From the NCBI GenBank assembly GCA_021813445.1, contig JAKAKP010000133.1, positions 12,937 to 76,936 on the forward strand: a DNA stretch of 64,000 nt, in the 5' to 3' direction. A program made the position numbers and the translations under genes. Each line of letters begins with the position of its first letter. Position 1 is the first letter of the stretch. The notes under the pieces were generated by a model. It ran no database searches. It worked only from the letters and a program-made list of their open reading frames with translations, and was not told the origin of the DNA. The DNA comes from Deltaproteobacteria bacterium (GTDB lineage Bacteria > Desulfobacterota > Desulfobaccia > Desulfobaccales > 0-14-0-80-60-11). Shown here one piece after another: positions 42,989 through 62,627 of this stretch.

Positions 42989-43816
42989 TCAATCCAGTAG
43001 CAGCAAGTAGGCCACCGGGGTTATGGGGCTGGTCAGGCGAATCTTGACGAGAGCCGGGGTGCTGCTCAAGCCATTATCGCTGACTACCAGTTGGGCGGTA
43101 TAGAGGCCGCGGGTGTCGGCGATAAAGGTGGGGTTGGGGGAGGCCGGGTTGCTGAGCGCGGCGGCGCTGCCGGTTGGCTTGGCAGTCAGGGTCCACTGGT
43201 AGGAGCTGATGGCCTGGCCGTTGGCATCGTGGCTCTTGGTGCCGTCCAGGGTCACCACGGCGCCGATCCTGCAGATGACCCGGTCCGGGCCGGCGTCGGC
43301 CACCGGGGGGACATCGCGCAGGCTCACCGTCATGGTCACGGCCTGGCTGACGCCCTGGGAGTCCCGCACCACCAGTTGGATGACGTAATCGCCGTAGACG
43401 TCGGCAACGAAGGTGGGGGTGGCGGAGGTGGGGTCGAGCAAGGCGGCGTGGCTGCCCGGCGGCATGGAGACAATGGTCCAGAGGTAGGTAAGGTCCAAAC
43501 CCAAGGGGTCGTAGCTGCCGGAACCGTTGAGATAGACGGTGGAGCCGCTGATCAGGATGGTCTGGTTCGAGCCCGGATCGGCGACCGGGTCACCGGAGGT
43601 GGGGGTACTGGCAATCACCTGCCGGGCGGTGCGGTTGCCCGCGGCGTCGTAAGCGTACTGGATAATGGTGCCGTCATCGTACTGCACCTGGGTAAGACGG
43701 TTCAGGGTGTCGTAAGTGTATTGGGCGGTGCCAGCCAGCCCTGGAGCCGCAAGGAGGAGGCAAAAACAGACTGCCAAGACGATTTTTCTTAAAGACAGGT
43801 TTTTCATTAGCATCAT
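42989..43816 (-). CDS. Secreted protein with two YD repeats and two PKD-like domains
   Basis: Signal peptide, YTYDTLNRLTQVQYDDGTIIQYAYDAAGNR, then two repeats of the ...DAGPD/ADPGSNQT...L(D/N)GS.S.D...Y.W... pattern. Confidence 0.7.
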   Translation of the reverse strand: MMLMKNLSLRKIVLAVCFCLLLAAPGLAGTAQYTYDTLNRLTQVQYDDGTIIQYAYDAAGNRTARQVIASTPTSGDPVADPGSNQTILISGSTVYLNGSGSYDPLGLDLTYLWTIVSMPPGSHAALLDPTSATPTFVADVYGDYVIQLVVRDSQGVSQAVTMTVSLRDVPPVADAGPDRVICRIGAVVTLDGTKSHDANGQAISSYQWTLTAKPTGSAAALSNPASPNPTFIADTRGLYTAQLVVSDNGLSSTPALVKIRLTSPITPVAYLLLLD

Positions 43817-43898
43817 CCTTTTAGGAAAGATACCTCAAATATAATGAATTTGGCCGATCCAATTAAACCCTACTATCGTTATCAGACATTTCTCCCTT

Positions 43899-43994
43899 CT
43901 ATCCGGTCAGGATAAAGGTACCTCCCGAAGCTGCTGGCGGAGTAAAAGTCTGTAACTGCCAGGCGGTGAGGTTGCCCGCGGCTTCATATGCGTA
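43899..43994 (-). pseudogene. Orphan YD-repeat fragment
   Basis: The minus strand reads YAYEAAGNLTAWQLQTFTPPAASGGTFILTG*. It has no start codon and lies between the CPBP and PKD genes. Confidence 0.45.
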
Positions 43995-44016
43995 TATTTG
44001 TTTTGTCTATAATGAC

Positions 44017-44676
44017 TTATGTATTCGCTAATAAAAGGAATGCATTGACGAGAGAATGAACTGTTATGGAGGCAACTATGCCACTTTTTGAATAAACTAC
44101 TGTGAATATGGCAGAATACAAAAAAATAAAAAAAAGGTTTATATCAAATGTCCCCCAAATTCCATGTGGGATAATAAATAATAAAGAAGACAATATAAAA
44201 GCAAATATATCGCCCCAATCCTCACGTATTATTCCAAAAAAATAACCTCTAAACAGAACTTCTTCTAATGTAGGCCCCCATAATACAACCAAAAATATAT
44301 TTAGATATAAAAAAGGCGTGGGCACATCAAGTATACTTTGTGCGAAAGGTATTTTCTTATCAGAAGTGATCATATTTAAAAAAAATGTAAGCCATGATAG
44401 AATGATTCCTACAATAATGGTCATAACCAAATCTTTTAAATGAGGACTGGCTACAGGAAGTCTCTTTGTTCTATTATAGCAATAAATTATTGCTATAATA
44501 GGAGAAAATGCAGATGAAGACAATATCTCTTTTGTTATTTGTGGAATGCTGGATGATAATTTATATAACATTGGATTTATTAATAGCCAAAGCATTAGAT
44601 GAGCTACTATTAGGCAGGCAAATCCTTCCAGTATTATGATGATATTCTTAATTCTATTATTAAAAATCATTACCAT
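44017..44676 (-). CDS. CPBP-family intramembrane glutamic endopeptidase (Abi / CAAX-protease-like)
   Basis: Motifs EEVLFRG, FIIPHG and HSLVNA in a polytopic, very AT-rich ORF. Start overlaps the Rhs stop by 7 nt. Confidence 0.8.
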   Translation of the reverse strand: MVMIFNNRIKNIIIILEGFACLIVAHLMLWLLINPMLYKLSSSIPQITKEILSSSAFSPIIAIIYCYNRTKRLPVASPHLKDLVMTIIVGIILSWLTFFLNMITSDKKIPFAQSILDVPTPFLYLNIFLVVLWGPTLEEVLFRGYFFGIIREDWGDIFAFILSSLLFIIPHGIWGTFDINLFFIFLYSAIFTVVYSKSGIVASITVHSLVNAFLLLANT

Positions 44677-46859
44677 CCGGCGCCTCCGGAAGGACCGATA
44701 GGTTCTGGAGGAAAACCAGGAGGATTAGGCAGAGAGGGACCGGGTACCGGAGGAAGAAAAGGGAACTGAGCCGGTCTTGTTGGAGGTTGTTGTGGGGGGA
44801 ATGGATTTGCGTAACAAATATCTCTTGGTGTAACATCAGCAGTAGGAGCTAACCAACCTTTTGGAGGAGGTTGAAGAGGATTTAAATTATTCATAGTTGT
44901 TGGGGTTAAACCATTAGGATCAATCATATTCAATGGATTATTCACAGCAAATCTATATAAATTAATTCCGCTTTCTTCTCCCAGCGGGTCCCTCGTCAGC
45001 CACCTTCCCAATGCTGGTACATAAAAACGATAACCATAATAACATAATCCAGTCTTTTCATCATAAGGCTTAGTGGAGAACTGAAATGGCTGTTTAATTG
45101 AATTGGCAGGAACGCGAGGTGCTCCAAATGGGTCGTATTGGTAGGTGGCGGCCACGTTGCCGTTGGGGTCCAGGAGGGCGGTGACGTTCCCCTTGCCGTC
45201 ATAGAGATAAGAGAAATGGACCGCGCCCTGGTAGAGGTCCAGCAGGCCGCCGATGCCCCCCGGCAGGCCCTGGCCCCAGGTGTATTCGCTGATGATGTTA
45301 AAGTTCCGGTCCTGTTCCTGCATGATCTGGAAGCCGTCGTACAGGTAGCGTTTCCAATCGGTAGCTTGGCCATTCAAAGAAACGATTTTCTGTACCAGAA
45401 GATTGCCGACGTAGTTATAACCGGTTCGATAGACATCGCTGCCCACCGTATAGCTGAAGGTGGTGAGGCGGTTGCTGCCGTCATAAACCGCGGTAAAGGG
45501 GTAACCTTGGGGAGTGTAGCCGTTGGTCAGGTTCCCGGAGGCGTCATAGACCAGGTCCGTCACCCCGGAGTTGGTAATGCGGGTGAGGGCATTGACGTTG
45601 TTGTATTCGTAGTTTGTGAGGCTGCTGACATAGGGCGGGGGCGAGGCGGGCTCGGTGGCGGTTTCGCCGGCCCGCAAGTCCTGATCGTTATAGGAATAGG
45701 CGTAACTGCAGACCACCGTGTCCCAAATCCTGGTGGTCATCTGCGTCAGGCGGTTGAGGATGTCATAGTCATAGGTGGTCACCGCGCCGTTGGGCCGGGT
45801 GAGGGTCCGGACCAGGGGGCTGGCCCCGGCATAGCCGTAAATATAAACCTGATCCCCGGCGGTGACGCGGGTGAGCCGGTTCAGGTGGTCATAGGCATAG
45901 GCCACGGGCTGGCCACTGCCCCGGGTCATGAGGGTCCTGCGGCCCAGGGCATCGTATTGATAAGCGACCCGGGTCTCTGGGTGGTTTCTCAGAGTAAGGG
46001 TCAATAGCTGGGAATTGGCATCGTAAGTGCGGTCGAGATACCAATAATCGGTGGAATAAGCAGATGTCTCCCGGCCGAAATTATCATAAAAATAGTAGGT
46101 CGCGGTCCCACCTTCATCCCAAAACCGGGCAAGTTTCCCGAGGTCAGAATAAAGATAATTAGTCTTGATGCCCCGGGCATTGGTCCGGGCCAACAGGTTA
46201 TTGGAAGGATTATTAGCATCGTAACTGAAGGAGTCGAAGGTGCCGTCCGCGTAGGTCTTTTTAATCAGGTTGTTATTGGCGTCGTAATCGAACCTGGTGA
46301 TGTTTCCCTTGGGGTCAGTGATGCTGGCCCGGTTGCCGTTGGCATCGTAAGTAAAGGCGGTGACCCCGCCCGCGGGGTCGGTCACCGCGGTCAGCCGGTT
46401 GGCCTGGTCATAGGCATAAAAGGTGGTCCGGCCCGAACGCTCCGTGATGCTGTCTATCTTGAAAGGACAACAGGAGGAATACTGGTAGCTCTTGTATTTA
46501 TTGTCCGGGTAAGTGATACGGGTCACCTGGTCCAGGTTATTATACTCATAAATCAGGGTCAGGCCGGAGGCGGCCTGCATGGCTTCGCCGAAAGAGGCAT
46601 TGACCATTGGATAGCTCAGATCATGGGTGGGGTAAAGCGGTCCATCCAATTGCCCGGCAGCCATCAGATCTTCGAAGTTGAGGTTCCTGGAAAGGTCTAA
46701 GGCTTTTAGCGAGTATCCTTTGGGATACCCCGGGCTGGCTTCGGCGTTGGCAGCAAACAGGGGTAAGACTATTTGCAGCAGGAAGATTAAGGAGGAGATG
46801 AGGAAAAGTCTATAAGTCCTTTTAACTAATGGAGAATGCGGAGATGAATGGTTCATCAT
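44670..46859 (-). CDS. Rhs/YD-repeat protein with Sec signal peptide and a short proline-rich C-terminal tip
   Basis: Many YD repeats (YDANGNR, YDALGRR, YDHLNRL...). Core end YGYRFYVPALGRWLTRDPLGEESGINLYRFAVNNPLNMIDPNGL. The last 78 aa (44670-44906) are Pro-rich. Confidence 0.85.
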   Translation of the reverse strand: MMNHSSPHSPLVKRTYRLFLISSLIFLLQIVLPLFAANAEASPGYPKGYSLKALDLSRNLNFEDLMAAGQLDGPLYPTHDLSYPMVNASFGEAMQAASGLTLIYEYNNLDQVTRITYPDNKYKSYQYSSCCPFKIDSITERSGRTTFYAYDQANRLTAVTDPAGGVTAFTYDANGNRASITDPKGNITRFDYDANNNLIKKTYADGTFDSFSYDANNPSNNLLARTNARGIKTNYLYSDLGKLARFWDEGGTATYYFYDNFGRETSAYSTDYWYLDRTYDANSQLLTLTLRNHPETRVAYQYDALGRRTLMTRGSGQPVAYAYDHLNRLTRVTAGDQVYIYGYAGASPLVRTLTRPNGAVTTYDYDILNRLTQMTTRIWDTVVCSYAYSYNDQDLRAGETATEPASPPPYVSSLTNYEYNNVNALTRITNSGVTDLVYDASGNLTNGYTPQGYPFTAVYDGSNRLTTFSYTVGSDVYRTGYNYVGNLLVQKIVSLNGQATDWKRYLYDGFQIMQEQDRNFNIISEYTWGQGLPGGIGGLLDLYQGAVHFSYLYDGKGNVTALLDPNGNVAATYQYDPFGAPRVPANSIKQPFQFSTKPYDEKTGLCYYGYRFYVPALGRWLTRDPLGEESGINLYRFAVNNPLNMIDPNGLTPTTMNNLNPLQPPPKGWLAPTADVTPRDICYANPFPPQQPPTRPAQFPFLPPVPGPSLPNPPGFPPEPIGPSGGAGW

Positions 46860-48499: not shown

Positions 48500-49723
48500 C
48501 TATAATTCAATGATCCGACTGGGTGGATTTTCCAAGAGGGTCACCAGGGTCAGGTAGTCCCGGATATGCCGGGTTATGAGAAAGTGCTGGCGGACGAATT
48601 CCCGGGCGATCTGGCCCATGCGCCGGGCCATTTCCGGACGATGCAAAAGATAACGGATACGAAAAGCGCAGCCTTCCGGGGAATGGACCAGAAAACCGGT
48701 GTTGTAATCCTGCAATTGGAGAACAATCCCCCCGGCGGCTCCGCCGATCACCGGCTTTCCTTTCCACATGGCTTCGGTGACCGTTAGTCCGAAGCCCTCC
48801 CGGGTGGATTTTTGGACGATGATGTCCGCGGCCCGTTGCAAGGCGTTAACCTCGTGATGGGCGTCCGGCGGCAGGAGCAGGATCTGGATATCCGGCTCCC
48901 CATCGGCCGCTGCCATTACTTCGGCAAAGATCCGGGGACCTTCCGGGTCATCGGTGGCCTCGCCGCCGGCCAACACCAGCTTACAGGGAGTATGCCGCCG
49001 AACCAGGCGGAAGGCCTGGATTACCCCCAGCGGGTCCTTGAAGGAATCGAAGCGGGATACTTGCAAAATTATGGGCTTATCCCGGTCGATCCCCAGACGG
49101 TATAACACTGTCTGAATTTCTTCCGGAGTCAAGTCCCGGTTTTTTTCGCTGAAGGGGTCGATGGAAGGCCGGATAAGATATTGAGGGTGCGGCAGATTTT
49201 GGGCGAATTGGGACATGGAAAAGACCGAGGCTTCATACTGGCTCACTATTTCCCGCAGAAATCTCCATACCTGAAGATTGGGACGGGATACGTCGATGTG
49301 GCAGCGCCAGATCCAGTGGTTGGCCCGGTCCCGCATCTCCTCAATCAGGAAGGCCGGCTGGGGGTCGTGCACCAGGACAAAATCAACCTCCCAGTTGAAC
49401 CGCCGGGCGTTCTCCCGGTTGATCTCCCGGTAATGGTCCAGCATCTCCGGAGAGATGTTAACCTTAAAGCCTTGCAGAGCGTTATGAAATGCCTTGGTGA
49501 CCTCAAAGAAATCCTGGTCGCCGTGGATCACCTCCCAACTGGTGTCCATGCCCAACTGATTCAATAGGGGTACGGCCCGGGAAAGAATCTCCGCCACCCC
49601 ACCGCCGCTGCGGGTGGAATTAATATGGACAAAATGCCGGGGCCCCAATCGCTCTGCCAGACGGTGGAGCTGGCCGATTACTTCCGGACCCACCAGTGCA
49701 GCGTAATCATTCAGGCTGATCAC
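48500..49723 (-). CDS. treT: TreT-type trehalose glycosyltransferring synthase (GT4)
   Basis: FVHINSTRSGGGVAEIL, FHNALQG, VLVHDPQP, WRCHID, PSIDPFSEKN, QVSRFD and REGFGLTVTEAMWKGKPVIGG closely parallel archaeal TreT. Confidence 0.75.
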   Translation of the reverse strand: MISLNDYAALVGPEVIGQLHRLAERLGPRHFVHINSTRSGGGVAEILSRAVPLLNQLGMDTSWEVIHGDQDFFEVTKAFHNALQGFKVNISPEMLDHYREINRENARRFNWEVDFVLVHDPQPAFLIEEMRDRANHWIWRCHIDVSRPNLQVWRFLREIVSQYEASVFSMSQFAQNLPHPQYLIRPSIDPFSEKNRDLTPEEIQTVLYRLGIDRDKPIILQVSRFDSFKDPLGVIQAFRLVRRHTPCKLVLAGGEATDDPEGPRIFAEVMAAADGEPDIQILLLPPDAHHEVNALQRAADIIVQKSTREGFGLTVTEAMWKGKPVIGGAAGGIVLQLQDYNTGFLVHSPEGCAFRIRYLLHRPEMARRMGQIAREFVRQHFLITRHIRDYLTLVTLLENPPSRIIEL

Positions 49724-50399
49724 AGACTTCTCCCATATGCTGATTAATCAAGCTCACCAGGGTCTCCCGAATCTCCTTCAAGCTGTAAAAGTAAATATCC
49801 AGATCTCTAATAGCCCGCACCAAATCAGGCAGGTCAAAGTTATTTTCAATCCAGAAGGAAAAGTCATCGGCCTTCCTTACCCCCAGGCGCCAGCGGGCCT
49901 CGAAAAAGTGGTAGTACAGAGAATCCAGCCCCACTTTTCCCAGGGCCACACAGAGTTCTTCGAGGGTCTGGGCGCTGATTTCGGAACGGATCACTACCGT
50001 GGAGGCCTGGCAAAAATGGATTTCAAATCCCGATCTGGCCCAGGGAATAGTGGGCAGATCCCAGAGATACTCCTCCAAGACGTCCACTGCCGCCTGGCGA
50101 ACCTCGCCCATAGTTTCGTATTCAAACGGGTCGAAAGAACTAAGCTTTTCGGCCAGGGTGCTATCCTGCAGGGCGTTGGCGGCCCAGTGGGCCAGATCAT
50201 TAGGGTATTCCACCGCGGGAGGACTGGGGGCCAACCGCGATTGGATCAGATGGTAAAAGAGCACCGATTCATCCAGAACCCGAATGGCCTCCACCAACTC
50301 CCTGAGGTTCATCGCCTTCCTGCCGATGGGCATGGGCATCAAAAAGCACTCACGGAACCAGAAAGGATTTTCAGCCACTTGATTTAAAATATTTCCCAT
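49707..50399 (-). CDS. Conserved hypothetical protein, possibly DUF5752-like
   Basis: Clean 230-aa ORF overlapping both otsB (29 nt) and treT (17 nt). The family assignment is from memory only. Confidence 0.5.
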   Translation of the reverse strand: MGNILNQVAENPFWFRECFLMPMPIGRKAMNLRELVEAIRVLDESVLFYHLIQSRLAPSPPAVEYPNDLAHWAANALQDSTLAEKLSSFDPFEYETMGEVRQAAVDVLEEYLWDLPTIPWARSGFEIHFCQASTVVIRSEISAQTLEELCVALGKVGLDSLYYHFFEARWRLGVRKADDFSFWIENNFDLPDLVRAIRDLDIYFYSLKEIRETLVSLINQHMGEVCDQPE

Positions 50400-51189
50400 T
50401 GCGGTCCTCCAGGGGGAAAGCTAAGGCATTTAAAAAATGTCGCACCGCTTCAGGATCGGGGAGGAAGTGGGATGCCGCGGTTTTACTGCCCGGGTGCCCC
50501 ACTTTTATGGTCAGCCCCTGGCCTTGCAATATGCGAAAGGCACTTTCGTCGGTAATATCGTCGCCTAAATATATTGGAAAATATCTGGAAAATGAAGGTA
50601 ATGACAATATTTCATTTATTGCTGCACCCTTACTGATTCCTTGAGGTAACATTTCCAACACTTTTTTCCCAGCCAGGAGTTGAAAGCGTTTCTCCGAGCG
50701 CACCTGCTCCTGCCACCTGTTTAATATCGCCAAAAATTCATGTAGATACTCTTCGGGCAATTGCCGGTAGTGGAGCGCAAAACCTAAGGGCTTGTCCTCA
50801 ATCCACCAACCCGGAAAGGTCTGCAACCTCGCCTCCAGCCGGCTGCGCCAGTGCAATAGGTCGTCTTTATCTGCGGCTACCACTTGCTGTGAATGGAGGC
50901 AAGGAGATATGAATGCTTCTCCGCCGTGAGATCCAAGAAAATTCAGTCCCGGGACAGGCAGCATCTCTTGTAATTCCCATAAGGGACGGCCAGAAATCAC
51001 CATTGCCTTCAAGTCCGCCCGAACCGCCAGCCGGTTCAGCAACTCTATTAGCTCCGGAGTAGGCCGGGCCAACTCCGGACGTAAAGCGATTTCCACCAGG
51101 GTACCATCATAGTCCAAAAAGAGAAGCAAAGGCCGCCCCCGTCGCCTTGCTTGTATCGTAGACTTAAGAAGTGCGTGAAAGTCGGTCAT
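50371..51189 (-). CDS. otsB: Trehalose-6-phosphate phosphatase (HAD)
   Basis: LLLFLDYDGTLVEI (DxDGT), SGRPL and LGDDITDE motifs. Confidence 0.85.
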   Translation of the reverse strand: MTDFHALLKSTIQARRRGRPLLLFLDYDGTLVEIALRPELARPTPELIELLNRLAVRADLKAMVISGRPLWELQEMLPVPGLNFLGSHGGEAFISPCLHSQQVVAADKDDLLHWRSRLEARLQTFPGWWIEDKPLGFALHYRQLPEEYLHEFLAILNRWQEQVRSEKRFQLLAGKKVLEMLPQGISKGAAINEILSLPSFSRYFPIYLGDDITDESAFRILQGQGLTIKVGHPGSKTAASHFLPDPEAVRHFLNALAFPLEDRNGKYFKSSG

Positions 51190-51268: not shown

Positions 51269-52636
51269 TCACTTTTCCTCCGGCTCCGGCTCTTTTGTTT
51301 CCATCTCTTTCAGGCGACGGTACAGGGTGGCCAGGCTGATGCCCAGGAGCCGGGCCGCCAGTTCCTTGTCTCCATCCGTTTTTTTCAGGGTTTGCAGAAT
51401 GGCCAGGCGCTCGATTTCTTCCATGGAGGAGCCCACGGGGATGGTGATTTGATCATCCGCTAGGGAATGGCGCATGATGTCATCAGGCAGGTCTTCGAGC
51501 TGCACCATATTGCCTTCGCACAGGGCCACGGCCCGCTCCACCACGTTCTGCAACTCCCGCACGTTTCCCGGCCAGGAGTAGTTCTTCAGCGCGGCCAGAG
51601 CCTCCTGGCTGAAGCCCATGGCTGGCCGGTCGTTCTCCAGGCAGAACTTGTCCAGAAAGTGCAGGGCCAGGAGCGAAATGTCTTCTTTCCGCTCCCGCAG
51701 CGCGGGTATGGGCAGGTGGATGACGTTCAGGCGGTAGAAGAGGTCCTTGCGGAAACGTCCCTCGGCCACCGCGGCCTCCAAATCCATGTTGCTGGCGGCG
51801 ATGACCCGGACGTCCACCTTCAGGGTCTGGGTCCCCCCTACTCGCTCGAATTCCCCCTCCTGAAGGACCCGCAGGAATTTTACTTGGGTGGCCGGGGGCA
51901 TCTCGCTGATTTCATCCAGAAAAATGGTGCCCCCGTCCGCCAGTTCGAAGCGGCCTTTGCGCTGCTGGGTGGCCCCGGTGAAGGCCCCCTTTTCGTGGCC
52001 GAAGAGCTCGGATTCGATGAGCCCTTCCGGCAAAGCCCCGCAGTTTAGTTTCACCAGGGGCTTGTCCCGGCGGGGGCTCTGGTAGTGGATGGCTTCGGCC
52101 ACCAGTTCCTTGCCCACGCCGCTCTCCCCGGAAAGCAGCACCGTGCTCTTCAAGGGCGCCACCTGGTTCACCACGTGCAGGACCTTGAGGAGAGCGGCTC
52201 CCCGGCCGATGAGGCGGCCCGTAGGGCCCCGCTCCTGGAGGGCCTGGCGCAGCCGCTGATTTTCCACCAGGAGTTGCTGGGTCTCCAGGGCCTTGGTCAC
52301 CACCTTGCGCAGTTCGTGCATGCGGAAATCCTTGGTGATGAAGTCGTAAATCCCCTGCTTGAGCGCAGACACCGCTTCGTCCACGGTGGCGTGGCCGGAA
52401 ATCATAATGGCGATGGTCTCTGGTCTGAGGATGCGCAAGGCCCCGAAGAGTTCGGTGCCGGTCATGTCCGGGAGCTTCAAATCGATGATGGCCAGGTCCA
52501 CGGCGTGACGCCGCACCTCGTCCAGGGCCGCCACCCCGGTGCCCGCGGTGTGCAGCTCATGGCCCATCTTTTTCAGGCCGGACTCCAGGGCCTCCCGGGT
52601 GGGCGCGTCGTCGTCGACAACCAGAATGACACTCAT
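51269..52636 (-). CDS. NtrC-family sigma-54-dependent response regulator
   Basis: Receiver domain (ILVVDDD...DLAIIDLKLPDMTG), AAA+ domain (GESGVGKE, GAFTGA) and HTH (AARLLGISLATLYRRL). Start at internal Met (52636). Confidence 0.9.
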   Translation of the reverse strand: MSVILVVDDDAPTREALESGLKKMGHELHTAGTGVAALDEVRRHAVDLAIIDLKLPDMTGTELFGALRILRPETIAIMISGHATVDEAVSALKQGIYDFITKDFRMHELRKVVTKALETQQLLVENQRLRQALQERGPTGRLIGRGAALLKVLHVVNQVAPLKSTVLLSGESGVGKELVAEAIHYQSPRRDKPLVKLNCGALPEGLIESELFGHEKGAFTGATQQRKGRFELADGGTIFLDEISEMPPATQVKFLRVLQEGEFERVGGTQTLKVDVRVIAASNMDLEAAVAEGRFRKDLFYRLNVIHLPIPALRERKEDISLLALHFLDKFCLENDRPAMGFSQEALAALKNYSWPGNVRELQNVVERAVALCEGNMVQLEDLPDDIMRHSLADDQITIPVGSSMEEIERLAILQTLKKTDGDKELAARLLGISLATLYRRLKEMETKEPEPEEK

Positions 52637-52769
52637 AAGAGCAGTTTTTTTATACCGGTATTCGATTGGTATCTTAATTGAGAAGATACGATTAACGGAG
52701 AAGCGGCGCAACTACCTGATGCGGCAACCAAATAGCTGCGCCGTGGTCCTGATGTTGACAACCAGTGAG

Positions 52770-53012
52770 TTATTTCTTTTCCGGGCTGGGCTTGGCCGGC
52801 GCGGGTTGAGTAGGCGCGGCCGGAGGAGCCGCGGGTTTGGGGGCGCCAGGCTTGGCCTCCGGCTTAGCCGCGGGCGCCGCCTCTTTCTTGGCCGGGGCCG
52901 CGGTTTGAGCCGCGGGTTTTTGGGCCTTGGCGGGTTCCTCTTGCTTGCCGCAGGCCACTACCAGGAGAAGCCCCAGACAGACTATTCCCAAGAGCAAAGC
53001 TAAACGTTTCAT
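52770..53012 (-). CDS. Small Pro/Ala/Lys-rich lipoprotein
   Basis: MKRLALLLGIVCLGLLLVVAC lipobox followed by a low-complexity PAAK-rich tail. Start taken at the internal Met with RBS gaggaggg. Confidence 0.55.
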   Translation of the reverse strand: MKRLALLLGIVCLGLLLVVACGKQEEPAKAQKPAAQTAAPAKKEAAPAAKPEAKPGAPKPAAPPAAPTQPAPAKPSPEKK

Positions 53013-53128
53013 AAAACATCCCTCCTCAGGTTTTATTGGGGCCAGGTCGCCGGTGCCGCATGGACCTGGCCTTGAATCTCCGCGGGTTAATGAGCGCTCG
53101 TTTATTGGCAGTGGAGACCAGTCCAGAT
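53013..53128 (-). repeat. Conserved intergenic block downstream of an SH3b gene (copy 1)
   Basis: Shares GAATGAATC...CACTGCCAATAArCGAG...CATTA...GCGG...GGCCAGG...CTGAGGAGGGAT with 53804-53922. Confidence 0.6.
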
Positions 53129-53803
53129 TCATTCCCCCCACACCAGATCTTCCCTGACCCAGCCGATCACTTCATTTTCCCAATAGTAACCGACCTTCAC
53201 CCATCTACCTTTTTCGGCAAAAAGTTTGTAGATCTCGCCTTTGGAAGCCTGCTTGACCACCGGCCCCTTCAAACCGGGTACTTTTCTGATATTGGCGTTC
53301 TCCACCGACACCACCACGGTTTTGATCGTGGAAACCAAGGGTTTGTAGACCCAACCGGCATTATGTTTGTAGTCAGTGACATATACCCAGTCATCTTTCT
53401 GCTTTTCCACTTTGATGGGATCCCCCTGGAAGACCTGGAAAAGAATCTCGGACTTCAAGTTGGGTTTAGCCCGTACGTTAGCCCGCTCTTTGCCGATGCT
53501 CATCATGGCGACCGGCGTGTTTCTATGAGCGGCTGGCCCTTTGCCGGGACTCTTCATGGAGACTGGTTGGCTTTGAGGGGCGGCCGGCTCTTTGGTCTCG
53601 CAATTATCCAGGGGACGCGGAGTTTCCAACATGGGGGGCAGCGGCGGTGGTTCCACCTCTCGTTGGGCCCAGGCGCCTTTATGGCTGAGGAGGAAAAATC
53701 CCATAGTTGCTATAATTATTAATTTAGTCAGCCAATTCTTCCCCAGGGGGAGCGCCTGGAGCGGCAGGCGGACCATTCCCGAGAGCAGAGCTATGCATTT
53801 CAC
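53129..53803 (-). CDS. Exported protein with two SH3b-like domains (paralog 1)
   Basis: GKERANVRAKPNLKSEILFQV...DDWVYV and ENANIRKVPGLKGPVV...GRWVKVGYYWENEVIGWVREDLVWGE. GTG start with RBS. Confidence 0.7.
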   Translation of the reverse strand: MKCIALLSGMVRLPLQALPLGKNWLTKLIIIATMGFFLLSHKGAWAQREVEPPPLPPMLETPRPLDNCETKEPAAPQSQPVSMKSPGKGPAAHRNTPVAMMSIGKERANVRAKPNLKSEILFQVFQGDPIKVEKQKDDWVYVTDYKHNAGWVYKPLVSTIKTVVVSVENANIRKVPGLKGPVVKQASKGEIYKLFAEKGRWVKVGYYWENEVIGWVREDLVWGE

Positions 53804-53922
53804 AAGAGAATCCCTCCTCAGAGTTTCTATCGTAGTTCAGGTTATCGGCTGCGGGAGCCTGGCCCAGAAGCCCCGCAGCTAATGGGTACTCGCTTATTGG
53901 CAGTGCTGGCCAAGCCCGGGAT
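53804..53922 (-). repeat. Conserved intergenic block downstream of an SH3b gene (copy 2)
   Basis: See 53013-53128. Contains the 8-bp stem gctgcggg/cccgcagc. Confidence 0.6.
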
Positions 53923-54369
53923 TCATTCTCCCCACACCATGTCACTTCTGACCCAGCCGATCTCCTTGTTTTCCAGGTAAAAACCGATTTTTACCCACTG
54001 CCCCTTTTCATCAAAGAGTTTATAGATATTGCCGTGTTTGACCTGGTCCACCACTTTATAATTCAGGCCGGGGCCTTGACGGATATTCACTAGATCCTCG
54101 AGCACCAGAACGGTTTGGATATTCCTGTTGATTAGGGGCTGGTAAACCCAGCCGGTATCGCTCTCATAATCTTTGATTTCTACCCAGGAGCCCTTGGTTT
54201 GTGTCACCTCTACCGGGTATCCGAAGGGAACCTGAAAAAGGACTTCGGCTTTGAGGCTGGGAGCGTTGCGGACATTGACATTTTCCTTGCCAATGCTGGC
54301 CATGTAGGCTGAGGCGGGTTCAAGCAGAATGACCATCCAGATAATAGTTAGAGACAAGACTCTCAGCAT
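53923..54369 (-). CDS. Exported protein with two SH3b-like domains (paralog 2)
   Basis: Its C-terminus ...GQWVKIGFYLENKEIGWVRSDMVWGE is nearly the same as paralog 1. Has a signal peptide. Confidence 0.7.
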   Translation of the reverse strand: MLRVLSLTIIWMVILLEPASAYMASIGKENVNVRNAPSLKAEVLFQVPFGYPVEVTQTKGSWVEIKDYESDTGWVYQPLINRNIQTVLVLEDLVNIRQGPGLNYKVVDQVKHGNIYKLFDEKGQWVKIGFYLENKEIGWVRSDMVWGE

Positions 54370-54450
54370 AAGCGTCCTCCTTATGGGAAAATGCTAACCT
54401 CCAAGGTTGGGTAAGGCTGCCTGCCGGTTAACGATCTGTTGAAGTTGCAC
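54370..54450 (-). repeat. Promoter/leader cassette, copy A
   Basis: Minus strand: CAACAGATCGTTAACCGGCAGGCAGCCTTACCCAACCTTGGAGG...TTTTCCCATAAGGAGGACGCTTATG. The ATG is the SH3b gene start. Confidence 0.6.
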
Positions 54451-54466
54451 AAGGTCTTCTATTTAC

Positions 54467-55465
54467 CTAAAAACGGGTATAGGACCCTTCGATCTTGGGT
54501 CGTTTAATCCATCGATGGAAATGGAGACTGGTTGAGGTGACTGCAAAACCGGTTTTGAAAGTTATCCGTAAGGCAGGGTAGTTGTTCGCCAGCGTGCGCA
54601 CTCCCACGTACTGTACTCCTTGCTGGGCCATCCTCTGAAGAGCTGCTCGATTCAGACAGGCACCCAATCCCCGATTTCGATTATCGGGTCTCACTCCGAT
54701 AAAGTCGAGACTCCCCGTCTTTTTGCCCACCAGTTGGCAGAAGGTCTCGTTTGTCTTGCTGATGATGAATCCCTGGACTGCACCGTGGCCTCGAGCGACG
54801 AGCGTCGTGAATTGAGATTGATCGAAGCAATTATCCACCAGCTTCCTGTAGAGCGTGCGAGCCAGATCTGGGTCGATCAAGGGGTCGCAGGCGAACCTGT
54901 TATGCACATGAGTGGATTCGACTATTTCAAGCACCTGTTTGCGATCGGCGCGGCTGCATTCAGCGATCTCAATGTCTGCCGGCGGATCAAACGGCTCGTC
55001 CCGCCTGAGCTCCTGGCCCAGGAAAGCCTCGGTTCCCACGTATCTGAAGCCGGCAGCCTCCAGTGCCTGAGCTGCATATACGTCATCGGCCGCTATTCGG
55101 CAGTCCAGGAAATCAACCTCCTGGAGCTCTTCTATCACGTACCGTAGCAGCCGCGCTCGCACCAGAGACCCTTCGAAGCCAGCCAGCAGATGGGGAACCG
55201 CGTACATCTTCAGACCGAAATGCTCACTCATCCAAGGGAGGGATTTCAAAGCGATCAGTCCAGTGAGTTTTCCGTTCGCCTTCAGGCAGATGCTTTGCGT
55301 GTCCGGTGACTTAAGAGTGGTTTGAAGGTAGTCGGCCATGCCTTCTTTGGATACCTTCATGCTTTTGAGCTGGAAATCTTTGTGAGGGTATTCCTGGAAG
55401 AGACGGCGCACTTCTTCGTCTCGGGAACCATCGAGCGGTGAGAACATCAGCTGGCTCATCGACAT
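54467..55465 (-). CDS. Tandem-GNAT N-acetyltransferase
   Basis: Two acetyltransferase-like halves. The second carries RNRGLGACLNRAALQRMAQQG (Q/RxxGxG/A motif). Confidence 0.65.
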   Translation of the reverse strand: MSMSQLMFSPLDGSRDEEVRRLFQEYPHKDFQLKSMKVSKEGMADYLQTTLKSPDTQSICLKANGKLTGLIALKSLPWMSEHFGLKMYAVPHLLAGFEGSLVRARLLRYVIEELQEVDFLDCRIAADDVYAAQALEAAGFRYVGTEAFLGQELRRDEPFDPPADIEIAECSRADRKQVLEIVESTHVHNRFACDPLIDPDLARTLYRKLVDNCFDQSQFTTLVARGHGAVQGFIISKTNETFCQLVGKKTGSLDFIGVRPDNRNRGLGACLNRAALQRMAQQGVQYVGVRTLANNYPALRITFKTGFAVTSTSLHFHRWIKRPKIEGSYTRF

Positions 55466-55467
55466 GA

Positions 55468-56658
55468 CTAATTCTTATCCTCTATAAGGTCTATTCTCAG
55501 TTTCGCTTCCCAATGCGTTGTTTTTAAAGGTATTTTCGGCTTCCACCTCTGGTAAGGAACCAGATCCGGACCAGGAGACCTGATCAGGGGAATGCCGGTG
55601 GGCGTGACTGACGTGGACATCCACCCCGGGCCAGGGACATAGAGCACGGTGAAAAAATGGCCGAACCGCCCTGCCGTGAGGCAGGGTATGCCTCGCGCCC
55701 TCAGGAAGGCACATTCCAGGGGAGCCGTATCCGGACAGGCTCCTGAATGCCGCTTCAGGGTTTCATCCACGTCCTGATACATGAGGTCGAGATCGGAATA
55801 GACCATTTTCCCACCGAAATAAGCAGCGCGTTTGCGCTTATCATAGGCCACGTTCCTTTTGACGAATTTCGCCAAGCGCCAGTACTCTTTGCGGGCATCA
55901 GGTGGCCCAGGTTCTCCCCGGGCAGCCCAGGCTTGAGCGGCAGGGAGGTCGGGGTCGATTTTATGGCCCGGTTCCAGGAAGGGCTGCACTGCCCGCGGGA
56001 TTTCAGTACCGATGGGCTTTCCTGAGAGCCACAGGTCATGGTCCAGGATCTCAGCCATGTTCACGTCGTAGCGGAACCAAAAGGTGAACTTGATCGACTC
56101 ACCCTGGCACACATTTTCCAACCGTGCCCTGAGCCACCGGTTCCCTGCCGCATCGACCGTCATGTTCTGTGAGCACGCCGGCTTCACCACCTGATCGGAA
56201 TACACGAGTTTCTTGCCGAATCCCTCCCGCGGGGCAGTAATTTGCAGCTCCAGAGGGCCCATGTATTCCTGGGCCTCAACCTCGAATCCGACTCGATAGA
56301 CCCCGGCCAGGGCAAAATGCTCGAGTATGCTGCCGGATAAGTGTGACGGTAGAGGGCCTGCCCAGATCCACTTCCCCAGACAGCCGGCACATACCACACG
56401 CTCCAGTCCTAATACAGACTCAGGGTTTCTATCTGCAGGCACGAATCCTTTCTCCGCCAGTATCGCCAGATCCTCGAAGGTCAGGGGGCGGTCGCTTTTC
56501 ACCAGGACCAGGACCTTTAGACCGGGTCTGCGGCTGGCTATCTTCTCCCAATCAATCTGGGAAGCTGCACTGGAAGCCGGCGCAGCCGCGCCAGGGGCGG
56601 AGAAGCAGACTACAAGTGCGGCAATCAAAAGGAGGCGGTATGTCAGGGGCTTTTTCAT
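55468..56658 (-). CDS. Exported transglutaminase-like (papain-fold) domain protein
   Basis: Signal peptide. SGACPDTAPLECAFLRARGIPC...GHFFTVLYVPGPGW resembles the Cys/His transglutaminase core. Start at MKKPL (56658). Confidence 0.5.
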   Translation of the reverse strand: MKKPLTYRLLLIAALVVCFSAPGAAAPASSAASQIDWEKIASRRPGLKVLVLVKSDRPLTFEDLAILAEKGFVPADRNPESVLGLERVVCAGCLGKWIWAGPLPSHLSGSILEHFALAGVYRVGFEVEAQEYMGPLELQITAPREGFGKKLVYSDQVVKPACSQNMTVDAAGNRWLRARLENVCQGESIKFTFWFRYDVNMAEILDHDLWLSGKPIGTEIPRAVQPFLEPGHKIDPDLPAAQAWAARGEPGPPDARKEYWRLAKFVKRNVAYDKRKRAAYFGGKMVYSDLDLMYQDVDETLKRHSGACPDTAPLECAFLRARGIPCLTAGRFGHFFTVLYVPGPGWMSTSVTPTGIPLIRSPGPDLVPYQRWKPKIPLKTTHWEAKLRIDLIEDKN

Positions 56659-56683
56659 CAGATTCAACGGCAAGTTTTTCTCC

Positions 56684-56818
56684 GCATAAGTGTCCCCCTA
56701 GTGAGAAAATCCCAATCCTTCCCAGGGTTGGGTAAGACTGTCTATCGGTCTGTTAACGATGGTGCCCGGGGAAATGCAGAACTGCAGCGCCCAGCCTGGA
56801 TTGCAGACTGTTACTCAG
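56684..56818 (-). repeat. Promoter/leader cassette, copy B
   Basis: Shares the core CAGTCTTACCCAACCCTGGGAAGG...TTTTCTCACTAGGGGGACACTTATG and the distal block AACAGTCTGCAATCCAGGCTGGGC with copy C. Confidence 0.6.
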
Positions 56819-57035
56819 TATCCCTTCTAGGACCTTCTATTGATAGAAGAGACCCGGCCACAGTCCTCACATTTTCACAAATTGCATCAGCCTTCGCTAA
56901 AATGGTTCTCTAAGCCAACTACCCGATGCCTATGTCTTGCATCAACGATGACCGACTTGTTAATATGAATGATTCGTTTTGGTTCTCGACCCGAAAGTCG
57001 AAATGCGAACGGCGAGTGGAGAAACTACCGGACTG

Positions 57036-57350
57036 CTACAGGGGGATACCACCGGAACTGCTTCGAAAGTAGCATTTGATTATTGGAAGAGGACTTTCAA
57101 TCTCAACTGAGACTGATTGGGTTAGCCAGCCCTGGGGGATATCAGGCAGTCTTGCCGATGTGATCCAAACCGAGGATCCGACTTTGCCCGAGCTATCGGG
57201 AGAAAAGGTTTGATAAATTGTTCCTTGGCAAAGAAGATTCGCAGGCCTTCCCTTGGCAAGCAACCCGTCTTGGGCCAGATCGACTAGCAGAAAAATTACC
57301 CACAAGAGCATTATTATCTGCTTCAATCTGTTTCTGGCTCGCGGTGACAT
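57036..57350 (-). CDS. Small membrane-anchored hypothetical protein
   Basis: One N-terminal TM helix (IIMLLWVIFLLVDL). Lies 45 nt downstream of the OtsA fusion. No recognisable motif. Confidence 0.4.
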   Translation of the reverse strand: MSPRARNRLKQIIMLLWVIFLLVDLAQDGLLAKGRPANLLCQGTIYQTFSPDSSGKVGSSVWITSARLPDIPQGWLTQSVSVEIESPLPIIKCYFRSSSGGIPL

Positions 57351-57395
57351 CGGATATAGCCTATGTCTTAATGAAAAGGTATGTCAAGAAAATTA

Positions 57396-59642
57396 TCATT
57401 CCACTCCCTCCGCAGGACGCAGGCGGGCCAGGGCTGCTATTAAATCCCCCGCCCACCGGTAGATATTGTTCTCCCTTATCACTGTGCGCATGCGCCCCAT
57501 GCGTTCGCTTTTCTCTCGCGGTTCCATTACCAGGGAACGATGGAGAGCGTCTGCCATTTCTTCGATATCGTAGGGATTTATTATCAGGGCGTCGGTGAGT
57601 TCCCTGGAGGCGCCCGTGAACTGGCTCAAGATTAAAACGCCGTCATCGTCATCGCGGACGGAGACGAATTCCTTGGCCACCAGGTTCATCCCGTCATGCA
57701 GGGAAGTGACCATGCAGACGTCGGCCGCCTTGTAGAAAGGATAGATTTCCTCATGGCTGTGATGGGCCTTTAAAAATAGGATCGGGTTCCACTCCCTGGT
57801 CTGAAATCGCCAGTTTATGCTGTCTGCGGTCTCCTCCACTTCGGCCATGAAGTCGCGGTATTTCTTAATATGGGTGCGGCTGGGAGCCCCCAACTCCACG
57901 AAGGTGAATCGCCCGATGAATTCAGGATATTTTTCCAGAAAGCGTTCCACTGCCCGGAAGCGCTCCGGGATGCCTTTGGTGTAGTCGATACGGTCCACTC
58001 CCACGCCCAGGTACCTGGCCTGCACTCCTCTTTCCTTGAGAAGTTGTTGCCTCAGCGGCAGGCTTTCCCTCTTGGCGGCTTCCCTGTCCGTGGAATTTTC
58101 AAAGCTCACGCTGATCGGGAAGGGTTTTACCAGGGTCGTATGGCCGCTCCGGCTAACCGAAAATTGTTCCCAATCTGTCTTGGACTCCAGGAAACGGTCC
58201 ACTGTGTCCAGGAAATTATTACAGTGAAACTGTATGTGGAAACCCAAGAGGTCGGCTCCGAGCATGCCCATCAGGATCTCCTGCTGCCAGGGGCAGATGG
58301 CAAATGCTTCCGGATTGGGCCAGGGTATATGCCAGAATAGCGCCACCCGGGCATCGGGGCGCTTCTCCTTCACCAGCAGCGGCAACAGCGCCAGGTGGTA
58401 ATCCTGGATCAGCACCAGGGGGGCTTCCTCTTCGGCGATTTCTTGCAGCAGGTTTTCCGCGAACTTCTCATTTACCTTCTGGTAGTTAATCCAGTCATCT
58501 AGACGAAAAATCGGACGGTTATGGGCAATATGGCAAAGCGGCCATAGACCCTCATTTGAGAACCCGTAATAGTAGCCCTTTTCCTCCTCTTTTGAAAGCC
58601 AAACTCTCTTTAAAGTATATTCCGGCTTTTCGGGGGGCACGCGCACCTTGTCATTGGCGTCCACGGTTTCCCGGTCGGCTTCTCCGCCGCCGTGGGCGAG
58701 CCAGAGTCCGTCGCAGATGCGCATCACCGGGTCGAGGGCGGTGACTAGGCCGCCGGCGGGCACAATGCATTTCACGGTATGTCCTTCGTTGATATGCATG
58801 TAAGGCTCGCGGTTGGATGCCAAAAACAGTTTCTTGCCGCTAAGTTCGACGCTCATTTGCTCCTTCAGCCGGCGGGCGGTCCAAAGCGAAGCGGTGCTGA
58901 AACGCCGTCTGGCCTCTGCATCCGCTCTAGCGCGGGCCACGGCAAGGCTCTTGGCCATGTTCGTCGCCTCGTTTACCAGAGAGGCGAGGATGTCTCCCCG
59001 GGGAAATGGGGCTGGCTGGCCGCCCTTGCCTTTACCGGTCCTGGCCTCCCTCATCCATTGGGCGATTTGGGCGATGGGGCCGGTGATACTCCACCTGACT
59101 ACGACCACGGTGATGAGAACAATAAGAAAGGTATAAATGAGAAACCTGAGCAGGTTATACTTCCAGATCTCTCTTAATCTGACGCCGATATATGTGGCAT
59201 CAGTGAAGAGGGCCATGGCTCCGGTAATCTTCCCGTCCGTCTTGAGAGGCAGGACATAGGCGTAAATGTCTTTCCCCTGGATATCTATTAATTCGCCTAA
59301 AGGCCTATCCTTCAAAATAGCTTTGACCGCAGCCGGAAAAGGTTGGGGGGTCAGCGACTTGAGTTCCGGCGTGGCGGTTATCATCTTCCCGTCCGTGCCG
59401 AATACGGCAACACCTTCGAACCTCTCATACTTTACGACCAGCCGGTTCAGCCATTCGGGGAGCCCTACCCCCTCCAAGGAGGAAACGGATTCCTTGAGGC
59501 TGTCCGCAAGAATCGCCGCCCTACGATCCAGGTCAACAGTCATGCGGCTTTTTTCCTGGTTCACTTGGTAATATGAAAGTATTGCCGTGACGATCGCCAC
59601 TACAATTACCAGGGACAACAGCAGGCGAAAGGTGATTTTCAT
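57396..59642 (-). CDS. otsA: Membrane sensor-HAMP / trehalose-6-phosphate synthase (GT20, OtsA) fusion
   Basis: TM1, a ~140-aa periplasmic segment, TM2 and a HAMP-like linker ([17 protein letters not shown]...). Then the GT20 core ([40 protein letters not shown]). Confidence 0.8.
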
Positions 59643-59697
59643 AATTACCTCATCCTCGATTTCACTCCTGAACTCTTCCCAAAGGGGATAAAATTCT

Positions 59698-59846
59698 CAT
59701 CATAAGCAGCACCCTCTTGTGGAAAAGATATTTCCCTCCCCAGGGTTAGGTAAGACTGCCTGTCGGTTAACGGTCTGTTGATGTTGGTGGCCGTGGAAGA
59801 CAGAAAGGAAGCCGCCCCGGCCTGGATTGCAGATTGTTGATCAGTT
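59698..59846 (-). repeat. Promoter/leader cassette, copy C
   Basis: CAACAGACCGTTAACCGACAGGCAGTCTTACCTAACCCTGGGGAGGG...TTTTCCACAAGAGGGTGCTGCTTATG plus the distal block AACAATCTGCAATCCAGGCCGGGGC. Confidence 0.6.
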
Positions 59847-60101
59847 ACAGGAAAGGAAAATCAGCAAATAAAAAACGTGCTGGGAATCAATCTGGCAACA
59901 GCAAGAAGGCCTTCTGTTCGTTAACTGACTATCATCCTACAAGAAATAAAAAAGGTGTCAACCCCGGCGATGAACGAGATGGAGATAATTTATTGAATTT
60001 ATTATTTTAATTTCACTGGTTGACAATTTGGTGCGGGAATTTAAATAAGCCGAGATTATTCAATAATAGCTCAGGGTGACAGGAAAAGGTTTGCAAGAGT
60101 T

Positions 60102-62233: not shown

Positions 62234-62387
62234 CCTAATTGCCAGGACGAAAGTCACCTGCTTCGCCAAAAAACCCAATGGGAACATTACCTGATATTTA
62301 CTGTAAACTATATCTTTAAAATCACATTGTTCCTAAAGAGCCTGAACGAAAGTCACCTACTTCACCATAAAATCTAATGGGAACATT
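62234..62387. repeat. Two imperfect ~55-bp direct repeats
   Basis: cctaattgccaggacgaaagtcacctgcttcgccaaaaaacccaatgggaacatt (62234-62288) versus cctaaagagcctgaacgaaagtcacctacttcaccataaaatctaatgggaacatt (62332-62387). Confidence 0.7.
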
Positions 62388-62468: not shown

Positions 62469-62543
62469 TGGAGGCGGCATCCGGATTCGAACCGGAGAAT
62501 AACGGTTTTGCAGACCGTTGCCTTACCACTTGGCTATGCCGCC
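62469..62543 (-). tRNA. tRNA-Cys: tRNA-Cys (anticodon GCA), CCA encoded
   Basis: Minus strand: GGCGGCATAGCCAAGTGGTAAGGCAACGGTCTGCAAAACCGTTATTCTCCGGTTCGAATCCGGATGCCGCCTCCA. Acceptor stem pairs, T-loop GGTTCGAATCC, anticodon loop CTGCAAA. Confidence 0.9.
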
Positions 62544-62552
62544 CAAAAAATA

Positions 62553-62627
<75 letters not shown>

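Follow-up and report, generated by a model that had tools for sequence, protein, structure and literature searches.

A minus-strand gene cluster in the deltaproteobacterial DNA studied here carries three copies of a conserved upstream block. Copy A lies upstream of a gene for an SH3b protein, copy B upstream of a transglutaminase-like gene, and copy C upstream of otsA, a trehalose-6-phosphate synthase gene. The blocks are the tails of a longer unit of about 340 nucleotides (nt). It is probable that an ancestral unit was copied by local segmental duplication to the front of otsA, of the operon comprising ORF104 (a small open reading frame, ORF), the transglutaminase-like gene and a GNAT acetyltransferase gene, and of the SH3b gene, and that these copies decayed unequally. 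All coordinates are those of the window, the whole 64-kb stretch that was analysed. Relatives are denoted by L-numbers, which stand for orthologous or homologous loci fetched by exact-protein look-ups and one metagenome DNA-pattern scan.

The original observation that a short block recurs three times in this cluster is borne out. The 19-nt core CAGYCTTACCYAACCYTGG has exact minus-strand matches at 54401-54419 (A), 56722-56740 (B) and 59740-59758 (C), three occurrences where 0.12 are expected by chance. None of 100 shuffles gave three matches, and there is no fourth match in the window with up to 3 mismatches allowed. The distal block AACARTCTGCAATCCAGGC is confined within the window to B (56794-56812) and C (59820-59838), as had been described. 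Core and distal block also emerge from a repeat search of the window, as families D5 and D19. A profile derived from the three copies detects each of them with an E-value of 1e-22 or better and has no other match in the window. Copies C and B are 83% identical over 130 nt, and both C and B are 79.5% identical to A over 78 nt. The blocks as first delimited were real but too short: homology between copy C and the paralogous units of relatives continues about 185 nt upstream of the boundary assigned to it, to about position 60032. A profile of the full unit, searched with nhmmer, aligns copy C at 60032-59698 (profile positions 3-338, E = 3e-107), copy B at 56819-56685 (positions 191-335) and copy A at 54447-54364 (positions 250-338); the E-values of B and A are given in Table 1.

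An alignment of seven to eight units from five genomes establishes the order of the parts as an AT-rich box, a promoter, a leader of about 225 nt, a Shine-Dalgarno (SD) sequence, an ATG, and about 18 nt of the 5' end of an SH3b gene. The predicted promoter consists of GGGGTTGACA with the -35 hexamer TTGACA, a spacer of variable sequence, and TAGGAT. Both hexamers are near-invariant in seven units, and the spacer differs in sequence and in length (16-18 nt). The promoter of copy C matches 10 of the 12 consensus positions. The AT-rich box sits about 25-65 nt upstream of the -35 hexamer, is conserved in all seven promoter-bearing units, and has invariant TTC and TTA columns. Copy C is the sole complete unit in the window. 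Copy B is without the promoter and the first 115 nt or so of the leader.

This architecture alters what can be said about the control signals. The blocks had been taken for a promoter plus 5' leader module. The unit does hold both parts, but the blocks first noted contain no promoter and represent the promoter-distal 80-150 nt of the leader. No clean sigma-70 consensus had been fitted to them; one is present as TTGACA-16-TAGGAT at 59961-59934, upstream of the coordinates then considered. The reported lack of a sigma-54 consensus stands. No GG-N10-GC (TGGCAC-N5-TTGC) site with at most 2 mismatches occurs in any copy, and the window holds 38 such sites compared with 33 expected, so a sigma-54 promoter was rejected. 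A promoter for an extracytoplasmic function (ECF) sigma factor was also rejected, since a 7-nt indel in copy B breaks the fixed spacing from CGTTAAC to the core. As a separate observation, GGTTGACA on the plus strand at 60018-60025 is an inverted copy of 59956-59963, 54 nt upstream of the -35 region of unit C. It is a property of the window copy, and other units do not keep it.

The 3' end of the unit originates from an SH3b gene. In L110, whose OtsA is 88% identical and which has no unit, the SH3b gene starts 27 nt after otsA in the context TTTTACAAGGAGGAGCTTATGCTGAGA. A 148-amino-acid SH3b protein of L121, also without a unit, is encoded in the context GGAGGTATTGCTTATGAGAAAA. These unit-less genes share (T)TTTAC-AAGGAGG-AGCTTATGCTGAGA, and therefore the native 5' end of SH3b is the source of the SD, of the ATG and of the 18 nt or so of SH3b sequence in the unit. 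As originally described, the conserved ATG is the SH3b start in copy A and opens a 7-codon ORF in copy B and a 13-codon ORF in copy C. Because the same start context occurs in the unit-less genes of L110 and L121, the mini-ORFs of B and C are, on this comparison, scars of copying the SH3b start, in line with the suggestion that they may be relics.

Both mini-ORFs end close to the gene that follows. The stop of the copy B mini-ORF (56687-56664) precedes by 5 nt the SD-less ATG of the transglutaminase-like gene (56658), and in L118 it overlaps that ATG (TGATG). The one in copy C (59703-59662) stops 19 nt before the otsA ATG (59642). Such arrangements resemble upstream-ORF translational coupling by termination-reinitiation at UGA-N-AUG or UGAUG, in that the copy B stop precedes an SD-less ATG by a few nucleotides or overlaps it. 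They differ from it in that the mini-ORF is a by-product of the duplication of the SH3b start, encodes an unconserved peptide, and is absent in L115 and L122. The other suggestion, that the mini-ORFs act as leader peptides, is unlikely. The three copy C orthologues all have 13 codons, their five codon differences are all amino-acid-changing, and L122 no longer has the ATG. Leader-peptide attenuation was rejected on the same grounds, and no conserved terminator lies downstream.

The relatives preserve the copies in different states of decay. L115/L120 (OtsA 92% identical) have a full C and a full A and no 3' half of B. L116 (OtsA 90%) has a full C and a split B, with a promoter-bearing 5' half and a separate 3' half. 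The metagenome pattern scan contributed L118, with the 3' half of B, and L119, with an A of intermediate truncation. In L121 (transglutaminase-like protein 76% identical) B is split and, in addition, broken by an IS21 fragment. L122-L125 (transglutaminase-like protein about 72%) have one full unit. Copy A follows the same GNAT stop codon throughout, and is complete with its promoter in L115, has lost the promoter in L119, and is shortest in the window.

Copy B has the most eventful history. Directly after otsA, L116 and L121 carry the promoter together with the first half of the leader, followed by ORF104 and then by the distal block and core, and TAACTGA flanks the ORF104 segment on both sides. 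The window has lost the promoter half of copy B. The gap that separates the otsA stop from the ORF104 ATG there holds a lone TTGACA (57382-57387, minus strand). TAGGCT follows it at a distance of 18 nt, and the ORF104 ATG at about 27 nt. The hexamer looks like a -35 element left over from the deleted promoter and 5' leader of unit B; L116 and L121 keep the full promoter at this place. The 3' half has been lost elsewhere. A 220-nt segment that contains it in the window, flanked by TGAAAA (56878-56872 and 56658-56652, within GTGAAAA and ATGAAAA), is exactly absent from L115/L120 (L115 5230-5250), and the transglutaminase-like gene there starts at the left-hand GTG. Judging from these flanks, a microhomology deletion likely removed the 3' half of copy B in L115. 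In L121 a fragment matching IstB_IS21 (1565-1900) splits unit B between the helix Px, described below, and the SD-ATG module.

The most distant unit shows a different pattern. The L122 unit is detected by the full-unit profile with E = 1.7e-52. It stands in front of the transglutaminase-like/GNAT operon, with a divergent ychF gene on its other side; glycogen and trehalose genes follow the operon, and no otsA is nearby. It keeps the promoter, the first 200 nt or so of the leader and the distal block; the core is absent. Its ATG has become AGG and its SD has become AAGGATGA. A perfect 7-bp hairpin, GACAAGA/UCUUGUC, occupies the place of the core.

These states bear on the claim that the module was duplicated to co-regulate three genes. 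A module has indeed been copied before the unrelated genes for the GT20 protein OtsA, the transglutaminase-like protein and the SH3b protein, and duplicated promoters occur in the relatives L115, L116 and L121. In the window, however, only copy C keeps a promoter. With A and B truncated, joint control by three duplicated promoters fits the relatives and not the window strain, in which read-through from the otsA promoter is more likely than transcription from three promoters. The proposed link to the adjacent NtrC-type regulator is unsupported: L115/L120 carry units and have no such gene in the cluster, and the copies contain no sigma-54-like site.

Among the collections searched, the unit is restricted to this locus and lineage. 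The core pattern CAGNCTTACCNAACCNTGG has 103 matches in 185,579 species-representative genomes (596 Gb), all of them single per contig and in unrelated taxa, as chance predicts. A combined pattern of distal block and core gave two real matches in a metagenome collection, both at the orthologous locus, and one chance match within a coding region. Viral contigs gave no match to the unit. Of the source genome itself, for which a search for further copies had been suggested as a check, the 64-kb window could be searched and the rest could not; beyond it, no dispersed copies were found in the genomes, metagenomes and viral contigs covered. The unit is missing from L110, L111 and L113 (OtsA 88, 82 and 80% identical) and from L126 (transglutaminase-like protein 65% identical), which marks the outer limit of the distribution seen.

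Within this lineage the unit is under selection, because its identity exceeds that of fourfold-degenerate sites in the neighbouring genes. Between the window and L115 the identity is 0.87 in the unit and 0.79 at such sites of otsA. The corresponding values are 0.89 and 0.79 for L116, and 0.79 and 0.60 for L122, where the transglutaminase-like gene served as the reference. At the greatest distance, conservation is highest in the upstream box, both promoter hexamers, TTCTTGCTGTT, GATCAACAATCTGCAWTCCAGGCC and CCCGGCCACCAAC. The core on which attention had centred is the least conserved part at larger distance.

The constraint on the leader raises the question of RNA structure. Three candidate helices can be drawn. 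P1 would pair UCAGUUA (59928-59922) with UAACUGA (59847-59841), and the three substitutions in L122 all yield G-U pairs. H1 would consist of AACAGAAGG/CUUGCUGUU at 59918-59897. Px would join 59822-59816 to 59796-59789 as GGCNGGG/CCCNGCC, with the N pair being C-G in four copies, U-G in three and A-U in one. Across P1, H1 and Px, 88.7% of the cells are paired compared with 25-52% in slid controls; the shuffle control is powerless here. Other candidates were rejected, namely the helix CAGAUUG/CAAUCUG, which is broken in L122 and in copy A of L115, the helix GUUAACG/CGUUAAC, whose pairing copy A of L115 does not keep, and a three-base CAG/CUG covariation in L122, which is too short to count. A coding function of the leader was rejected as well, since neither strand has a conserved ORF and indels change the reading frames.

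The end of the leader may form two hairpins, HpA and HpB. HpA has the form YCUU-A-CCCA, loop, UGGG-RRGG; it is the predicted minimum-energy fold in six of nine copies and feasible in eight. The two positions originally noted as variable (G/A)(G/A) face two U residues and the Y faces G, and therefore every HpA variant still pairs. HpB has the form GCAUUUUCC, a loop of 4-5 nt, and GGAGGAYGC, in which four U residues would pair with the AGGA of the SD. Pairing of UUUUCC with GGAGGA is predicted in the A-type copies, in copy B of L116 and in the C copies of L115 and L116. The SD is mostly paired in these models, with a mean probability of being unpaired of 0.17-0.35 in eight of ten folds and a predicted cost of opening of 2-7 kcal/mol. 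An alternative pairing, GGGRAGG with UUUUCC, is the minimum-energy fold in window copy C. The four segments YCUUACCC, GGGRAGG, UUUUCC and GGAGGA can pair as 1:2 together with 3:4 or as 2:3, so that a switch between these states is possible. RNA structure in the leader is plausible, and the modelling in its favour is at most suggestive.

As a working model, the otsA promoter would fire and the long leader would be transcribed. The last 60 nt or so of the leader would then fold into HpA (YCUUACCCA/UGGGRRGG) and HpB, and the fourU-like pairing of UUUUCC with the SD GGAGGA in HpB would limit initiation at the conserved ATG. In copy A, the limited ATG would be the SH3b start. In copies B and C, it would open the short relic ORF ending 5 and 19 nt before the real start, and reinitiation may pass translation on to the gene. 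Copies A and B of the window probably act only as intercistronic translation-initiation modules on the read-through transcript.

Several observations weigh against this account of a duplicated unit with translational control at its 3' end. Apart from the core, SD and ATG, which it lacks, the L122 unit is conserved; the strongest constraint therefore does not fall on the two 3' hairpins. In L115, where the 3' half of copy B is missing entirely, the transglutaminase-like gene nevertheless has no SD, so that coupling through the mini-ORF is not essential. The variation in the helices is nearly all one-sided, with a single compensatory pair in Px. In the seven-unit alignment P1, H1 and Px show no two-sided changes, and a single narrow clade supplied all the sequences. 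For five full leaders the consensus fold is borderline, with a structure conservation index of 0.52 and a column-shuffle z-score of -1.8 (10 of 300 shuffles were as good). Single-sequence folds of the three cassettes are no stabler than shuffles (z = +0.9 to -1.4). The SD hairpin HpB is weak in window copy C, and the promoter of copy C is a predicted one, identified as a consensus match.

It is possible, though on the doubtful side, that window copies A and B are functionless leftovers of duplication. They would persist only because their last 30 nt or so supply the ribosome-binding site in A or happen to precede the gene in B, and the similarity would reflect descent and not present regulation. 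Progressive, differing truncations of unit A across three lineages (full in L115, partial in L119, shortest in the window) speak for this. The 220-nt deletion between TGAAAA repeats in L115, the IS21 fragment in copy B of L121 and the purely amino-acid-changing differences in the mini-ORFs all point the same way. The 3' halves are nonetheless 78-90% identical among paralogues and orthologues, which is no lower than among the intact C orthologues, and HpA and HpB can still be folded in most copies.

If instead the leader is what selection acts upon, it could be a new structured cis-regulatory RNA responding to a ligand, a protein or temperature, with the RNA function, and not the promoter, propagated and conserved and the originally noted blocks serving as its expression platform. 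P1, H1, GATCAACAAUCUGCAAUCCAGGCC, Px and the two-hairpin SD platform would together constitute an undescribed RNA that governs trehalose and envelope genes of an uncultivated Nitrospirota-like lineage and was spread by duplication. We regard this as unlikely, despite features that speak for it. The leader is long, its conservation exceeds that of synonymous sites, and its most conserved stretches, TTCTTGCTGTT and GATCAACAATCTGCAWTCCAGGCC, lie downstream of the promoter. The high fraction of paired cells in P1, H1 and Px, the G-U pairs kept by the L122 changes in P1, the three kinds of pair at one Px position and the alternative pairings around the SD add to these. They have to be set against the borderline consensus fold, covariation that is without statistical support, weak single-sequence z-scores and a sample of about five independent lineages, all close relatives. 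The single-sequence fold of the full copy C leader is likewise no better than shuffles. A search of Rfam 15, at gathering thresholds and with E-values up to 10, gave no relevant match for the window, unit C, unit A or the L122 unit. Moreover, copies A and B persist without most of the leader.

The same conservation can be read at the DNA level, with the AT-rich box and the motifs GTTAAC, TAACTGA and TGATCA as transcription-factor operators around the promoter and the duplication as the means by which the regulon spread. This, too, has a low probability in our judgement. The conservation is more one of sequence than of structure. GTTAAC (which occurs twice), TGATCA and TAACTGA are palindromic or repeated as well as conserved, and the upstream box is kept in all seven promoter-bearing units. 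For operators, however, the motifs are unusually placed, about 75-80 nt apart and 10-165 nt downstream of the likely transcription start. The L122 substitutions leave sequences that are compatible with G-U pairing and not symmetric as DNA, and no candidate regulator is syntenic, the NtrC-type gene being absent from L115/L120 and L110.

That the unit is a miniature mobile element (a miniature inverted-repeat transposable element, a repetitive extragenic palindrome or a Correia-like element) with an outward promoter, spread by transposition, is highly improbable: the TGAAAA-flanked 3' half of window copy B that is absent from L115 and the TAACTGA that brackets the ORF104 segment of L116 are equally explained by microhomology deletion as far as flanking repeats go, the three full units have no terminal inverted repeats, the copies share one orientation, end without exception at the SD-ATG and number three in the 64 kb, all of them within 6 kb, and no copies occur away from the orthologous locus in the genomes, metagenomes and viral contigs searched. 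The reading that survives best is the local segmental duplication of a promoter-bearing unit followed by unequal decay.

Table 1. Parts of the three unit copies and genes of the cluster in the window
Feature	Position	Strand	Evidence or remark
Unit C, AT-rich upstream box, consensus nTAAATTCAAnAAnTTAT	59990-60032	-	homologous stretch in six other units
Unit C, predicted sigma-70-type promoter	59934-59961	-	TTGACA 59961-59956, 16-nt spacer, TAGGAT 59939-59934
Unit C, leader of about 225 nt	59704-59930	-	unit alignments; distal block 59838-59820, CGTTAAC 59772-59766
Unit C, core as predicted hairpin HpA, UCUUACCUA / UGGGGAGG	59735-59755	-	local folds of nine copies
Unit C, UUUUCC (59726-59721) and SD GAGGG (59716-59712)	59712-59726	-	local folds
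Unit C, 13-codon mini-ORF MMRILSPLGRVQE and stop	59662-59703	-	sequence; relic of SH3b 5' end
Unit B remnant, 3' half only	56685-56822	-	nhmmer, E = 9e-25
Unit B, distal block	56812-56794	-
Unit B, HpA	56737-56729 / 56724-56717	-
Unit B, UUUUCUC	56709-56703	-
Unit B, SD	56698-56693	-
Unit B, ATG	56687-56685	-
Unit B, 7-codon mini-ORF MRRKTCR and stop	56664-56687	-	sequence
Unit A remnant, last 80 nt or so	54364-54448	-	nhmmer, E = 1e-18
Unit A, core	54419-54401	-
Unit A, predicted HpB, GCAUUUUCC / GGAGGACGC	54394-54386 / 54380-54372	-
Unit A, ATG	54369-54367	-
otsA, GT20 trehalose-6-phosphate synthase with membrane/sensor N-terminus	57396-59642	-	Pfam PF00982, E = 1e-119
ORF104, small gene	57036-57350	-	within former unit B
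Transglutaminase-like gene	55468-56658	-	Pfam
GNAT acetyltransferase gene, after the transglutaminase-like gene	54467-55465	-	Pfam
SH3b gene (first)	53923-54369	-	Pfam SH3_3, E = 4e-26
Second SH3b gene	53129-53803	-	Pfam
NtrC-type activator gene	51269-52711	-	Pfam
OtsB gene	50371-51189	-	Pfam
DUF5752 protein gene	49707-50399	-	Pfam

The genes of the cluster (Table 1) have histories of their own. The otsA gene would be driven by the predicted promoter of unit C. Its protein is identical in two third-party annotation (TPA) genome bins, GCA_027404785.1 and GCA_027404805.1, and its nearest relatives are recorded under source names that include Nitrospirota, Nitrospiraceae and Thermodesulfovibrionales. 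For ORF104 there is no Pfam match, and its product has a hydrophobic N-terminus. It is open in five lineages (loci include L116 3941, L121 968, L115 4773 and L118 2312) with one in-frame 6-nt indel. Its synonymous to nonsynonymous counts are about 9:14 and 6:11, which makes it a fast-evolving small gene. The second SH3b gene is a chimera that arose by tandem segmental duplication. Its C-terminus comes from the first SH3b gene, and its N-terminus, VKCIALLSGMV..., comes from the downstream 80-amino-acid lipoprotein-like gene (52770-53141), whose product begins MKRLALLLGIV.... The 3' flank is duplicated too, and the repeats lie at 53088-53260 and 53880-54054. In L110, an SH3b gene and then the lipoprotein gene are present without a second SH3b gene. 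The NtrC-type gene lies between the lipoprotein-like gene and otsB in the window. In L106, a bin whose OtsA is identical, arginase and deoxyhypusine-synthase genes come after it in place of otsB. As a result, gene order varies even among near-identical strains.

Elsewhere in the window, there is a bacterial large signal recognition particle RNA at 14471-14732 on the plus strand (139.7 bits) and an Rfam group II intron match at 42211-42286 on the minus strand (43.1 bits, with a gathering score of 40). Repeats of about 40 nt ending in ...GTCATAGGCATA (families D1 and D3) occur at least seven times at 43600-46550 and would fit a long repeat-containing minus-strand protein gene, perhaps of the RHS/YD type. 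Two adjacent tRNA genes lie on the minus strand at 62472-62627, and beside them is a 48-nt direct repeat (62241-62288 and 62340-62387, 85% identical).

Putative mobile promoters in prokaryotes were reportedly described by Matus-Garcia, Nijveen and van Passel in 2012. Such promoters are recognised as highly similar upstream regions before non-paralogous genes of one genome, and their families are mostly without a link to known mobile elements or to Rfam (PMC3575422). The unit is alike in its identity between copies, in not belonging to a mobile element and in matching no Rfam family. Set against a threshold for promoter reuse of at least 80% identity over at least 50 nt, the 83% over 130 nt between C and B lies above it. 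The downstream genes are non-paralogous, with only the 18 nt or so of SH3b 5' end in common. Copy C and the full units of the relatives have a promoter consensus, and window copies A and B have none. The unit differs from the described families in that it is confined to one 6-kb cluster, includes the first codons of its donor, and is promoter-less in two of three copies.

The 3' end can be compared with known RNA regulators. In fourU thermometers of the Salmonella agsA type, pairing of four U residues with the AGGA of the SD is the defining motif (PMC3185406, PMC10586365). Copy A is similar, with GCAUUUUCC and GGAGGACGC enclosing a 5-nt loop and another hairpin before them. The unit differs in placing this element as the last part of a leader of about 225 nt and not in a short untranslated region, in that the element would control only a relic mini-ORF in B and C, and in the weakness of the element in window copy C; the FourU and ROSE models of Rfam gave no match even at E-values up to 10. 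Riboswitches and other long structured leaders share with the unit a long conserved leader between promoter and SD and the possibility of alternative SD pairings. The unit differs from them in that Rfam has no match for it, its covariation is unsupported and its distribution is very narrow.

The unit is a clear example of promoter reuse and not a new kind of element, and it is restricted to a narrow lineage of uncultivated bacteria. This narrow distribution limits its general importance. It nevertheless offers a datable case in which a control region, together with the start codon of its donor, was copied before unrelated genes of a stress cluster that comprises a trehalose synthase, a secreted transglutaminase-like protein with a GNAT acetyltransferase, and SH3b envelope proteins. 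The sister lineages freeze the stages of decay, from full units through promoter-less remnants and a gene-interrupted unit to outright deletion. For annotation, the lesson is that a conserved upstream repeat may be the tail of a longer unit, and mini-ORFs within it scars of duplication. The conserved long leader is the one part that could still hold novelty. If it acts as an RNA sensor, it would be a new regulatory RNA tied to trehalose metabolism in a poorly studied phylum, and if it is an RNA switch, the duplication would show a regulon assembled by copying that switch.

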